NCBI GenBank assembly: GCA_041299705.1 | Contig: JBGLNM010000001.1 | Location: 3,814 to 67,813 of the forward strand | Length of the DNA: 64,000 bases | DNA from: Desulfobacterales bacterium | GTDB taxonomy: Bacteria > Desulfobacterota > Desulfobacteria > Desulfobacterales > JBGLNM01 | Direction of reading: 5' to 3' | Shown here: piece by piece, positions 42,700 to 45,209 of the stretch | How positions within the stretch are numbered: position 1 is the stretch's first letter | How the letters are laid out: the number at the start of each line of letters is the position of its first letter | Made by a program: the position numbers and the translations under genes | The notes under the pieces: model-generated | Told to the model about the DNA's origin: nothing | Databases searched by the model: none | Seen by the model: the letters and a program-made list of their open reading frames with translations, nothing else

Positions 42700-45209
42700 T
42701 CCTTGAAGGCCTCCTCGACCTCGGCGCTCGCCATCTCGATCTTGGCGCCGCCGGCCTCAGCCTCCAGTTCCCGTTCCTCGCGCCGCTTGCGGCGACGCTC
42801 CTTGTGGTAGGCCAGGCCGGTGCCGGCGGGGATGAGGCGGCCGACGATGACGTTCTCCTTGAGGCCCCCCAGGCGATCGGTGGAGCCGCGCAATGCGGCC
42901 TCAACCAGGACACGGGTGGTCTCCTGGTAGGAGGCGGCGGAGATGAAGGACTCGGTGGCCAGGGAGGCCTTGGTGATCCCCAGGAGCAGAGGCTCGTAGC
43001 GCGCCGGCAGGCGGCCCTCGGCCTGGACCCGTTCGTTCTCCAGCAGGACCTGGCTCAGCTCCACCTGTTCATCCCGCAGCAGCCGGGTTTCACCCGCATC
43101 GAGGATCTCAGCCTTGCGCAGCATCTGCCGAATGATGACCTCGATGTGTTTATCGTTGATCTTGATGCCCTGTAGTCGGAAAACATCCTGTATTTCATTT
43201 ACCAAATACTTGGCCAGGGTTGTGGCGCCCATAAGGCGCAGGATGTCGTGGGGATTGTACTCGCCATGAGTGAGCGCCTGTCCGATTACCACATAATCCC
43301 CTTCTTCGACCTGCATCTTTAATCCTTTCGGAACATAAGTCATCACTTTTCCACCATCATCCTTGGTGATAATTAGCCGAAACTTGTTTTTTGTGTCCTT
43401 TTTAAAGCTGACAATACCATTAGCCTCGGCCAAGATGGCGGAGTTTTTGGGGGAAAGCGCCTCAAAAAGGGCAGCTAAACGGGGTAAGCCACCAACAATG
43501 TATCCCCCATTTTCAGTTGTTCTTTTAAGCTGACAAGTTAAATAGCCTAATTCATCACTCAGGCTGCCCTCGGGGTTATTTACGACGGTGGAAGGTACAA
43601 GCCTCATCGGGTAAGGGGGGGACAAAAAAGTCCGCATGGTGAGCTGCGACCCGGGCTCGCCGATCGACTGGGCGGCGATGACCCCCACCGCCTCGCCGGT
43701 GTTGACCAGGTGGCCCCGGGCCAGGTCGCGGCCGTAACAGTGGGCGCAGACCCCGGTGCGGGCCTCGCAGGTGATGGGGGAGCGCACCCGCACCTGGTCG
43801 ATGCCCGCCTGTTCCAGGGCGCCGACCCACTGCTCGTCGAGCAGGGTGCCGGCGGGGCAGATCAGGTCGTCGCTGCCGGGGCGGTAGACATCCCGGGCCA
43901 GCACCCGGCCGAGGATGCGTTCGCGCAGGGGCTCGACCACGTCGCCGCCCTCGATGATCGGGGTCATCAAGAGGCCACGCTCGGTGCCGCAGTGGCGTTC
44001 CAAGACCACCATGTCCTGGGCCACGTCCACCAGGCGGCGGGTCAGGTAGCCGGAGTTGGCGGTCTTGAGGGCCGTGTCCGCCAGGCCCTTGCGGGCGCCG
44101 TGGGTGGAGATGAAGTACTGGATGACGTTCAGCCCCTCCCGGAAGTTGGCGGTGATGGGGGTCTCGATGATGGAGCCGTCGGGCTTGGCCATGAGGCCGC
44201 GCATGCCCGCCAACTGGCGGATCTGGGCGGCGGAGCCGCGGGCGCCGGAGTCGGCCATCATGTAGATGGAATTGAAGGAGTCCTGCTGGACCGCCTGGCC
44301 CTTGGTGTTGGTCACCCGCTCCTTGCCCAGCTTGCCCATCATCGCCTTGGCCACCAGGTCGTTGGTGTGGGACCAGATGTCGATGACCTTGTTGTAGCGT
44401 TCGCCATTGGTCACCAGGCCGGAGGCGTACTGCTGCTCGATCTCCTTCACCTGGCGCTCGGCCTCGGCGAGGATGCCGGGCTTCTCCTCGGGGACGGCCA
44501 TGTCCTCCAGGCCGATGGAGACGCCGGCGCGGGTCGCCATGCGAAAGCCCAGGTACATGACCTGGTCGGCGAAGACGACCGTCTCCTTGAGGCCCAGGGT
44601 GCGGTAGCAGGTGTTGATCAGTTGCGAGATCTGGCGCTTGCCCAGCGCCCGGTCGACCAGGTCGAAGGCCAGCCCCGCCGGGACGATCTCGTAGACCAGC
44701 GACCGACCCAGGACCGTATCCTTGAGGCTGACCCGCTCCTCGCGGGTGCCGTCCTCTAGGAGATGCACCTCGCGGATGCGCACCTTGACCCGGGCATGGA
44801 GGTCGGCCGCCCCGGTCTCCCAGGCGCGCCGTGCCTCGTCGATGTTGGCGAAGACGCTGCCCTCGCCCTTGACTCCGGCGCGCTCGCGGGTCATGTAGTA
44901 GAGGCCCAGCACCACGTCCTGGGAGGGGACGATGATCGGCTCGCCGTTGGCCGGCGACAGGATGTTGTTGGAGGCCATCATCAGCGCCCGGGCCTCCAAC
45001 TGCGCCTCCAGGGACAGTGGCACGTGGACCGCCATCTGGTCGCCGTCGAAGTCGGCATTGAACCCCGCGCACACCAGCGGGTGGATCTTGATCGCGTTGC
45101 CCTCTATCAGCACCGGCTCGAAAGCCTGGATGCCCATCCTGTGCAGGGTCGGCGCGCGGTTGAGCATCACGGGGTGGTTCTTGATCACGTCGTCGAGGAT
45201 GTCCCAGAC
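42700..45209 (-). pseudogene. rpoC: DNA-directed RNA polymerase beta' subunit fragment. The N-terminal ~410 residues and the natural stop codon are missing, and the trigger-loop region is replaced.
   Basis: Starts at ..[46 protein letters not shown]. Runs to ..[18 protein letters not shown].. and then reads through into the rpoB leader. It lies upstream of rpoB, the reverse of the universal rpoB-rpoC order. Confidence 0.88.

Follow-up and report, generated by a model that had tools for sequence, protein, structure and literature searches.

The rpoC-like reading frame in the window (i.e. the whole 64,000-nucleotide stretch of DNA that was analysed) contains a low-GC patch which, with a probability that we put at roughly 0.7, serves as the diagnostic module of a real second gene for beta-prime, belonging to uncultured, Chromatiaceae-type gammaproteobacteria related to 'Ca. 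Thioaporhodococcus'. As far as sequences can tell, this would be a previously undescribed second copy of beta-prime that lost its trigger loop and yet appears to be kept by selection, and it is best read as a beta-prime that may be catalytically crippled by design. The paralog is rare. Patterns derived from the patch are absent from 185,579 GTDB species representatives and have no match in IMG/VR, and a tblastn search of plasmid and phage sets with the patch retrieved ordinary rpoC only, at identities of 58% or less. A literature search for natural trigger-loop-less beta-primes or rpoC paralogs found nothing relevant. The parts of the feature and its neighbours are listed in Table 1.

Table 1. 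Parts of the beta-prime paralog fragment and the adjoining coding fragments in the window.
Feature	Position	Strand	Basis or remark
RpoC (beta-prime) paralog fragment	42573..45215	-	about residues 421-1285 of full-length 1388-aa P0243
High-GC paralog core (GC 0.68)	43626..45215	-	NADFDGD at 45039-45059, bridge helix at 44013-44096
42-codon linker replacing trigger-loop N-arm (H-I-G-G..) and SI3 (about 198 aa normally)	43500..43625	-	alignments
Diverged homologous part (GC 0.47): trigger-loop C-arm and jaw-like region	43230..43499	-	56-62% aa identity to any RpoC
Transition zone: protein conserved again, G+C still 0.48	43113..43229	-	composition
High-GC (0.69) C-terminal beta-prime core	42691..43112	-	81-86% nt identity to normal rpoC in L002, L088
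Start of the paralog's low-GC C-terminal extension, cut off here	42573..42686	-	L001, L086 match to 42573, then differ
PAS-like coding fragment, unrelated, by chance in frame	45216..45419	-	weak PAS_8, PAS_4 matches
Deltaproteobacterial-type rpoB fragment	38702..42572	-	own RBS and residues 1 to about 1260; rpoB homology ends near 38766

The G+C content of the patch, 0.474 as the exact segment value for positions 43113-43625, stands against 0.681 (43626-45215) and 0.690 (42691-43112) in its two flanks, which bears out the patch of ~0.5 kb (47% versus 68-69% G+C) that a sequence-only reading had described. Sliding windows of 120 nucleotides have a G+C content of only 0.38-0.50 from about 43120 to 43600 and of 0.65-0.75 on either side, and in bins of 400 nucleotides the patch is the lowest of the entire 64 kb (0.47, every other bin being at 0.557 or above). 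The discontinuity is found in codon usage as well: third-position G+C is 0.24-0.68 in the patch and 0.9-1.0 outside, i.e. the switch in codon choice that had been reported is real. The upstream edge of the patch is sharp (43625/43626, right after ..MRTF) and the downstream edge is gradual across 43113-43260. Both of the homopolymers said to mark the upstream edge are present on the plus strand, G7 at 43615-43621 and A6 at 43624-43629, at the upstream end of the linker.

The minus-strand frame reads MRTF and then LSPPYPM.., and the same MRTF/LSPPYPM.. junction occurs in all lineages of the paralog. The H-x-G-G start of the trigger loop and SI3 are absent from the window frame, as noticed before, and translation and alignments agree on this; the translation also follows the earlier description in that the protein similarity is perfect up to the junction, deviates and then recovers. 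In the alignments with normal relatives ~155 residues are missing, namely the trigger-loop N-arm including its His and most of SI3, and the spacing from MRTF to ITGGLPRV is ~198 amino acids in a normal RpoC (P0244) versus 42-43 in the paralog. Of the M-R-T-F-H-x-G-G N-arm neither the His nor the G-G is there, the context of the His codon being out of frame, and there is no gammaproteobacterial SI3 within the trigger loop. Any product of the gene would be without a catalytic element, just as had been predicted. That the 42-aa linker might consist of collinear SI3 remnants, with ACCTTCCAC as a relic of T-F-H, is a suggestion only and was set aside, since neither the protein nor the DNA alignment beats shuffled sequences: linker and SI3 have no significant similarity as proteins (z about -0.6), and their local DNA alignment is a 9-mer that is equalled by 25-35% of the shuffles.

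The junction is not confined to the window. At the nucleotide level ACCATGCGGACTTT/T.T.TCCCCCCCTTACCCGATGAGG is identical in the window, L001, L086, L003/L087 and L089, with lineage-specific substitutions around it, and base for base the same junction was found in at least five other public assemblies that come from different projects and assemblers (JGI 3300037458, 3300037408 and 3300056625, ENA ERZ27290317 and NCBI WBZM01). The carriers fall into three lineages (A, B and C) which are 6-14% apart in DNA (86-96% nucleotide identity), and one of them, L089, lies on a contig of 221,848 bp. The window fragment is 89.9% identical in nucleotides to L087 in one ungapped stretch (45209-42668) and 99.4% identical to L001 (44900-42573). 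Two of the lineages yield the gene at its full length of about 1388 amino acids. Intact ORFs of 1388 amino acids are known in two cases (P0243 and P0377), and L089 has 1386 amino acids once a 90-bp insert is taken out. The reading frames are intact in lineages A and B, and the gene of lineage C has this one in-frame, TTAA-flanked insert, which contains stops, and is otherwise intact.

The full gene follows rpoC from the TTG start to just short of the stop codon. P0243 has the Pfam domains Rpb1_1 to _5 and reaches 1662.7 bits with TIGR02386 (cut-off 963.5); the window ORF has Rpb1 domains 2-5, and its rpoC homology extends only from 45215 (45212 in normal relatives, ~E. coli residue 420) to 42573, so that the frame is not a complete rpoC. 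The core is more than 90% (91-96%) identical in amino acids to normal Chromatiaceae-type RpoC. The NADFDGD Mg-binding loop and the bridge helix are identical to those of normal relatives, and the Zn cysteines, the sigma-binding clamp helices, the secondary-channel rim helices and the C-terminal omega/beta contact region are also kept. The jaw is AT-shifted and strongly diverged in all lineages, and in lineage B changes also cluster in the zipper, lid, rudder/switch-2 and dock regions.

The position of the gene is also different from that of normal rpoC. A normal relative (L088) has the operon rplL-rpoB-rpoC-rpsL, whereas the paralog has a VIT/VWA gene upstream (L087, L089) and a CDP-OH (CDP-alcohol) phosphatidyltransferase gene downstream (L086, L089), and does not sit in an rpoB-rpoC operon followed by rpsL-rpsG. 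The feature is a fragment of a non-operonic paralog and not, as the sequence-only reading had it, the housekeeping rpoC of the organism. Homology to the normal locus begins exactly at the start codon, which is preceded by a conserved leader of ~320 nt and an RBS. Defence-system or prophage cargo was considered and rejected; UmuD-like and cpYpsA neighbours are found in lineage B only, and PADLOC gave no match.

In L001, L086 and L089 the C-terminal extension continues into a conserved 75-aa helical (two-helix) domain that was taken from the N-terminus of an uncharacterised family of ~225-aa proteins with 116 representatives. Every lineage has acquired a C-terminal linker together with this domain. 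An AlphaFold2 model of P0122 has a mean pLDDT of 49.9 and a pTM of 0.26, and only the two-helix hairpin of the extension domain is confident in it. The extension domain has no match in IMG/VR; PDB sequence searches gave no match, and neither the domain nor the 111-aa and 324-aa neighbours found anything in PADLOC, PHROGs, NCBIfam or Pfam. A diversity-generating retroelement and an Rhs-like system of C-terminal swapping were considered too and dropped, since neither a gene for reverse transcriptase nor a template repeat nor an orphan cassette turned up in the annotated contigs.

It could be argued that the gene is a decaying duplicate of rpoC, i.e. a pseudogene whose conserved parts are overwritten by gene conversion and whose patch is a stretch that escapes this repair and drifts to AT with deletions. 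We consider this unlikely, even though the core by itself does not speak against it: the dN/dS of 0.06-0.10 between lineages (about 0.1 in the C-terminal core) could be an effect of gene conversion and need not reflect selection on the paralog, and the core is 95-98.7% identical among paralogs, barely above its 94-96% amino acid identity to the closest normal RpoC (P0365). The non-convertible part, which has 33-61% nucleotide identity to normal rpoC, is more telling. Its jaw-like portion has dN/dS values of 0.21, 0.33 and 0.18 in the three lineage pairs (p = 1.5e-4, 0.012 and 7.6e-5, respectively), and the extension domain, which is not of rpoC origin, has 0.27-0.29 (p about 1e-3), both of which argue for a selected protein. 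A neutral pattern (dN/dS about 1) is approached only in the two linkers, where it would agree with decay: the one that replaces the trigger loop has 0.4-0.7, which is not distinguishable from neutral, and the linker of the extension evolves close to neutrally, the range for both being 0.4-1.0. The substitution spectrum of the patch is AT-biased (66-71 GC to AT versus 14-15 AT to GC differences of the jaw-like part from normal rpoC, an excess confined to the patch), as drift would have it, and the context of the His codon, ACCTTCCAC, persists out of frame; nevertheless lineages A and B run through about 270 low-GC codons, where chance stops should be frequent, with neither a stop nor a frameshift, and conservation extends to synteny, leader, RBS and start codon. 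Decay would also be consistent with the loss of near-invariant residues (FEALSPK in A, SIGELGSR and the switch-2 Arg in B and C) and with the state of lineage C, in which an IS element adjoins the gene and the gene is at least dispensable, because the stop-containing 90-bp insert interrupts it.

A second possibility is that the patch, and perhaps the extension, was imported by recombination from an unsampled organism or mobile element of higher AT content with a trigger-loop-less, beta-prime-like gene, the remainder being homogenised to the host rpoC. Note that such an import would explain the origin of the patch only and is compatible with a selected paralog. The compositional break is indeed sharp, with a third-position G+C of 0.24-0.68 against 0.95, the share of FYMINK amino acids is 0.31-0.33 in the patch versus 0.22, and the synonymous difference from normal rpoC, which is 0.2-0.3 in the core and 0.46-0.67 in N-terminal islands, is saturated in the patch; moreover, the extension domain was really captured from another gene family, and the linker is without significant similarity to SI3. 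We nevertheless hold an import to be improbable, as no donor was found among 5.8 billion proteins, in which the best identity is about 65%, nor in the viral, plasmid and phage collections. All sampled gammaproteobacterial RpoC proteins, those of its own clade included, are equally close to the jaw-like part (56-62% identity), the nearest matches are still Chromatiaceae and sulfur-oxidiser types, which come before E. coli and Acinetobacter, and the clade signatures GKDTK..RL.IT and YLVKEIQDVYRLQG are retained. The recombinant segment proposed earlier survives only as a possible evolutionary origin, with a donor lineage that was not found (best identity 58-65%).

An assembly or sequencing artefact at the patch (a metagenomic chimera of the rpoC genes of two species or a homopolymer frame error) is very hard to believe, for in spite of the artefactual joins that the window record itself holds, the G7 and A6 runs at the patch edge and the short carrier contigs (mostly 1.9-9.3 kb and breaking in the conserved core, L089 being the exception), the junction is shared by at least five assemblies including the 221,848-bp contig, the lineages are 6-14% apart within the patch with a coding-like substitution pattern, and every copy is in frame on either side of the homopolymers. 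The suspicion of a corrupted region or a one-off chimera at the patch is contradicted by the identical junction and patch in independent assemblies and by purifying selection. The window does contain cross-species joins, but these are at 45215/45216 and 42572/42573 and not at the patch edges.

The window looks like a set of short MAG contigs that were joined without gaps, and the paralog fragment is probably one short, 2.6-kb gammaproteobacterial contig inside a joined Desulfobacterota MAG record. The rpoB is of the delta type and the rpoC core of the gamma type. The best GTDB match of the rpoB fragment is a Desulfobacteraceae MAG (76%, the next being at 60% or less), its similarity to L005 begins at 42559, and its Pfam Rpb2_6 match ends at profile position 336 of 373; it comes from another organism and has no functional link to the paralog. 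On the other side, the PAS-like fragment (45216..45419) does not resemble the part of full-length P0243 that would correspond to it. Truncated genes in the window are those of UvrB, a periplasmic binding protein, DHH and rpoB, and the DHH gene is cut at 48773, which is also the end of a 2639-bp contig of GCA_041299755.1. As the paralog fragment borders on an unrelated piece of rpoB and on further truncated genes, both the "PAS-rpoC" ORF of 959 aa and the apparent PAS-rpoC-rpoB arrangement are in all probability products of the joining. The ORF equals P0242, which comes from an NCBI record given as one contig of 2,536,680 bp, and this too fits a joined record. In an exact-protein look-up the 959-aa ORF, the TrpRS and the rpoB of the window were without match, and ScpB matched, leading to L085. 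The end of L085 at 46135 was considered as a genomic-island insertion at tRNA-Val, which was rejected, as a terminator hairpin is continuous across it.

It is assumed that bacteria possess a single beta-prime gene, and the trigger loop counts as indispensable for catalysis, fidelity and pausing. From this indispensability and from the non-operonic locus we infer that the selected paralog is accompanied by a normal rpoC in the same genome. The product would still assemble with beta, alpha, omega and sigma, and the resulting enzyme would be catalytically very slow; it would therefore be a specialised or regulatory (competing or occupying) form of the polymerase and not a housekeeping one. Gene conversion may hold most of the gene near normal rpoC, and modules that are unable to pair, or that are kept different by selection, would then stand out as divergent islands that have drifted to AT. 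We speculate, tentatively and at rather less than even odds, that some Chromatiaceae-type bacteria make a second form of RNA polymerase whose beta-prime is deliberately devoid of trigger loop and SI3 and equipped with a C-terminal adaptor domain, a slow or non-catalytic form that would bind sigma and DNA and serve regulation or a non-canonical synthesis reaction. Its regulatory uses might include the occupation of promoters, a dominant-negative slowing of transcription, and resistance to or sensing of agents that act on the trigger loop or the jaw. A natural beta-prime that is maintained by selection and keeps every assembly and sigma-binding surface without trigger loop, SI3 and native jaw would be new, and would be a natural experiment on the use of a polymerase without a trigger loop. 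There are practical consequences too: such paralogs pass rpoC equivalog models and can distort counts of single-copy markers, rpoC phylogenies and estimates of MAG quality, and in the record behind the window short MAG contigs that are apparently joined without gap markers give rise to false fusion genes.

It is useful to set the general features of the paralog beside those of known systems. The nearest one is the Chromatiaceae-type RpoC itself ('Ca. Thioaporhodococcus sediminis' MCO5762595.1; TIGR02386; Pfam RNA_pol_Rpb1_1-5), with which the paralog shares the domain order, the TTG start and the kept motifs. It differs in the absence of the trigger-loop N-arm, the His and SI3, in the diverged, AT-rich jaw, in the additional C-terminal linker and helical domain, in its non-operonic position, and in lineage-specific changes at zipper, lid, rudder/switch-2 and dock. 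A two-barrel polymerase that works without a trigger loop exists in nature, namely the single-subunit RNA polymerase YonO of prophage SPbeta, which is related to beta-prime. YonO-type enzymes are, however, extremely diverged and single-subunit, whereas the paralog is more than 90% identical to cellular RpoC and most likely still dependent on beta, alpha and omega. Actinomycetes with a second rpoB gene (in Nonomuraea the pair rpoB(R) and rpoB(S)) have two forms of RNA polymerase with regulatory consequences (PMC5431353), a precedent for bacteria that run two polymerases. The likeness is that a paralog of a large catalytic subunit is found away from the housekeeping copy and the other subunits are presumably shared; on the other hand, rpoB(R) encodes a beta with its catalytic elements intact, the differences being point changes and small indels, whereas here it is beta-prime from which a catalytic element is removed and to which a foreign domain is added. 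Finally, engineered E. coli RNA polymerase without the trigger loop still assembles and forms elongation complexes, a precedent for assembly of the paralog, but is deficient in catalysis, and its paused complexes resist ribosome-mediated dislodging (PMC10881389). The E. coli delta-trigger-loop/delta-SI3 laboratory constructs lack the same element as the paralog, which, in contrast to them, is natural; in the paralog, moreover, the jaw is remodelled, a domain has been added and the hybrid-handling loops are altered.

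The drop in G+C noticed within the rpoC frame is borne out by computed windows and segments alike. The patch at ~43120-43600 has a G+C of 0.38-0.50 and both flanks 0.65-0.75 (120-nt windows), and 43201-43600 is the lowest-G+C bin of the entire window. Third-position codon G+C falls from 0.9-1.0 outside to 0.24-0.68 inside, in line with the codon switch described in the sequence-only reading, whose protein reading matches the minus-strand translation exactly. The upstream edge is abrupt and falls immediately behind MRTF, with the reported A6 and G7 runs on the plus strand, and the downstream edge is gradual. 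Close normal relatives confirm the loss of the H-x-G-G start and of SI3: the trigger-loop N-arm with its H-I-G-G is absent, as is nearly all of SI3, and 42 aa stand where the relatives have about 198 aa. Comparisons of this 42-aa linker with SI3, as a possible relic of it, were not significant.

The same structure recurs in independent assemblies: in L001 and L086 (JGI 3300037458 and 3300037408; 99.3-99.4% identity to the window), in L003 and L087 (NCBI WBZM01014211 and ENA ERZ27290317; 89.9% to the window, 99.98% to each other) and in L089 (JGI 3300056625, on a 221,848-bp contig). The cluster members P0375, P0376, P0377 and P0379 are additional copies. All copies have the nucleotide junction between ACCATGCGGACTTT and T.T.TCCCCCCCTTACCCGATGAGG in common and carry lineage-specific substitutions, which points to a single ancestral event followed by divergence into three lineages (A, with the window, L001 and L086; B, with L003/L087, P0243 and P0377; C, with L089). 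A one-off chimera or corruption, as suspected from the sequence alone, is thereby excluded.

Judged from its complete copies, the gene is probably a second beta-prime. The lineage B proteins P0243 and P0377 are intact (1388 aa), and that of L089 comes to 1386 aa when a 90-bp insert that interrupts it inside the patch is removed; the insert is flanked by TTAA, contains stops and is MITE-like. L089 also holds two DDE_Tnp_1/DUF772 IS copies nearby, and one separates the paralog from the gene that normally follows it. Homology to a relative's normal rplL-rpoB-rpoC-rpsL locus (L088) sets in precisely at the TTG that starts rpoC. It is preceded by a conserved leader of ~320 nt, in which there are a perfect hairpin (CTTGAAACAGCA..TGCTGTTTCAAG), TTGAC-type promoter-like hexamers and a GAGGGAG ribosome-binding site; this leader may be a regulatory element. 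The locus is syntenic and non-operonic, with a VIT/VWA gene upstream in lineages B and C and a CDP-alcohol phosphatidyltransferase gene downstream in A and C. Overall protein identity to the nearest normal RpoC exceeds 90%, and the Zn cysteines, clamp helices, NADFDGD, bridge helix, rim helices and C-terminal core are retained. In lineage B, substitutions cluster at ~E. coli positions 42-61, 251-270, 318-345 and 383-407 (assigned with the +5 offset seen in comparison with E. coli numbering), which we take to be the zipper, lid, rudder/switch-2 and dock; in B and also in C another residue stands in place of the switch-2 Arg. The normal rpoC of another relative (L002, GCA_025490955.1) is frameshifted as deposited, with two changes of frame in the first 900 nt of the contig; assembly quality is the probable cause.

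In the paralog, the acidic tail seen at the C-terminus of the closest normal RpoCs runs on into a fast-evolving linker and then a 75-aa domain, predicted to be a two-helix hairpin (pLDDT 73-85; the rest of the model is poor). By exhaustive search it is found as the N-terminal module in an uncharacterised family of ~225-aa proteins (P0380-P0493; 116 representatives at 50% clustering) with the motifs LSDDIW.SIDHND.EALEEGVAFKK ... FTYKRP.GF ... YLR.DR; neither domain nor family matched anything in Pfam, NCBIfam, PADLOC or PDB. Some family members also carry a fused HARE-HTH domain; one adjoins a Type ISP restriction enzyme gene (L090). The paralog lacks the trigger-loop His, N-arm and SI3, its jaw is remodelled and a domain has been added.

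Between lineages, dN/dS is 0.06-0.10 in the core, 0.21, 0.33 and 0.18 in the jaw-like part of the patch (p = 1.5e-4, 0.012 and 7.6e-5, respectively) and 0.27-0.29 in the extension domain (p about 1e-3), and no stops occur in the ~270 low-GC codons of lineages A and B. The chief alternative is a pseudogene buffered by conversion, with which the loss of near-invariant residues, the interrupted lineage C copy and the near-neutral linkers agree (dN/dS 0.4-0.7, not significant, in the linker replacing the trigger loop; about 1 in the extension linker). Normal rpoC offers no convertible counterpart to the jaw-like part or the extension, so that their constraint reflects selection on the paralog itself, and we consider the pseudogene unlikely. 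The evidence shows a conserved, selected, non-operonic beta-prime paralog.

As to the low G+C, the fraction of synonymous sites differing from normal rpoC is 0.2-0.3 in the core and 0.46-0.67 in N-terminal islands, and the patch is saturated. Differences in the patch run from GC to AT 66-71 times and from AT to GC 14-15 times, those in the core are balanced, and FYMINK residues are enriched in the patch. The jaw-like part is equidistant from all sampled RpoC (56-62%). From the substitution bias, the saturation and the absent donor we favour an old paralog: its convertible parts would have been homogenised with normal rpoC, and its non-convertible or selected islands would have drifted to AT. 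An unsampled AT-rich homolog as the source of the patch is improbable, since the databases searched yielded no donor lineage (identity reached about 65% at most) and the nearest matches come from the gene's own clade.

The window holds only a fragment of this paralog, embedded in a 959-aa ORF that is not a gene. Its opening stretch is PAS-like and unrelated, and rpoC homology starts abruptly at 45215 (~E. coli residue 420). An rpoB fragment follows on the same strand with about 12-26 nt of upstream sequence only and breaks off near residue 1260. The rpoC core is gammaproteobacterial, of the Chromatiaceae type (identity 94% with MAG protein NCA90126.1, 91% with 'Ca. Thioaporhodococcus sediminis' and 84-85% with Thiocapsa and Lamprocystis). 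The rpoB is of deltaproteobacterial type: a search of 185,579 species genomes gave a Desulfobacteraceae MAG as top match (76%), and the next matches stood at 60% or less. With nothing close to this Desulfobacterota-type rpoB among the GTDB species genomes, the binned host appears to be a poorly sampled lineage of about 65% G+C. At intervals of a few kilobases, other essential genes are likewise severed inside a domain: UvrB breaks off after about residue 470, a periplasmic binding protein ends after about 165 residues and a DHH protein (phosphoesterase) is cut at 48773, where a 2639-bp contig of GCA_041299755.1, matching 48773-46135 at 99.8%, also ends. Cuts, the paralog and rpoB included, lie at ~23295, ~31810, ~38766, 42572/42573, 45215/45216 and 48773/48774. 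An NCBI 'contig' of 2,536,680 bp carries a protein identical to the 959-aa ORF. We infer that short contigs of a fragmented Desulfobacterota MAG were strung together in this record with no gap markers between them, and that the joins between the blocks listed in the table are artefacts; the patch lies well within one block, away from the joins. Fragments of different phyla abut in a record listed as a single 2.54-Mb contig, and this record looks like short MAG contigs run together without Ns, whereby false fusion ORFs arise.

Coordinates of features in the window and, where named, in related loci
Feature	Coordinates	Strand	G+C
Patch segment	43113-43625	-	0.474
Upstream core segment	43626-45215	-	0.681
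Downstream core segment	42691-43112	-	0.690
959-aa ORF	42540-45419	-	
rpoB fragment	38702-42572	-	
Inferred blocks	48773-45216; 45215-42573; 42572-~38766		
Alpha/beta-hydrolase ORF	45373-46098	+	
tRNA-Val(CAC)	46152-46226	-	
Terminator hairpin	46105-46150		
Acetyl-CoA-synthetase-like (ADP-forming) ORF	26875-28515	+	
ACGATT/ACGACA hexamer-periodic repeats	34107-34169; 37050-37315; 37813-37841; 11229-11256		
PF05635 ORF	37350-37817		
CGAAAT/CGATTT inverted pair	4862-4889; 33835-33862		
Paralog leader	L087:1078-1395; L089:~9700-10000		
90-bp insert	L089:13012-13101		
IS copies	L089:4670-5647; 14399-15376		
~225-aa family member	L090:5106-5780		
Normal rpoC, L002	JAOQIC010061125.1:1-900		

Further features of the window deserve mention. 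The alpha/beta-hydrolase ORF overlaps the start of the PAS-like fragment on the opposite strand; its Pfam match begins at profile position 18 and its first ATG/GTG/TTG comes no earlier than codon 89, possibly because the start codon is unusual, the sequence is in error or the ORF is truncated. The tRNA-Val is followed by a perfect terminator hairpin, common to it and the convergent hydrolase gene, and the related short-read contig L085 breaks within this hairpin. The acetyl-CoA-synthetase-like ORF has ATP-grasp_5 first, then CoA_binding_2 and Succ_CoA_lig, and ends abruptly. The usual order in ADP-forming acetyl-CoA synthetase is the reverse; either natural permutation or a further join could account for this arrangement. 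The hexamer-periodic repeats, at 37050-37315 in three ~110-bp tandem copies, lie on both sides of the PF05635 '23S rRNA-intervening-sequence protein' ORF, and the inverted pair of the second repeat type is 29 kb apart.

It is of interest to ask what such a subunit might do. The surfaces that meet beta, alpha, omega and sigma are conserved, so the paralog would be expected to assemble with these subunits still. An engineered delta-TL E. coli RNAP is catalytically deficient, yet forms elongation complexes (PMC10881389). By analogy, an enzyme with the paralog would be catalytically very slow and might thus represent a specialised or regulatory polymerase form, and its host would presumably have to carry a normal rpoC too. 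A literature search for rpoC paralogs found none, and the closest parallel for a pair of polymerase forms comes from Nonomuraea, with its rpoB(S) and rpoB(R) (PMC5431353).
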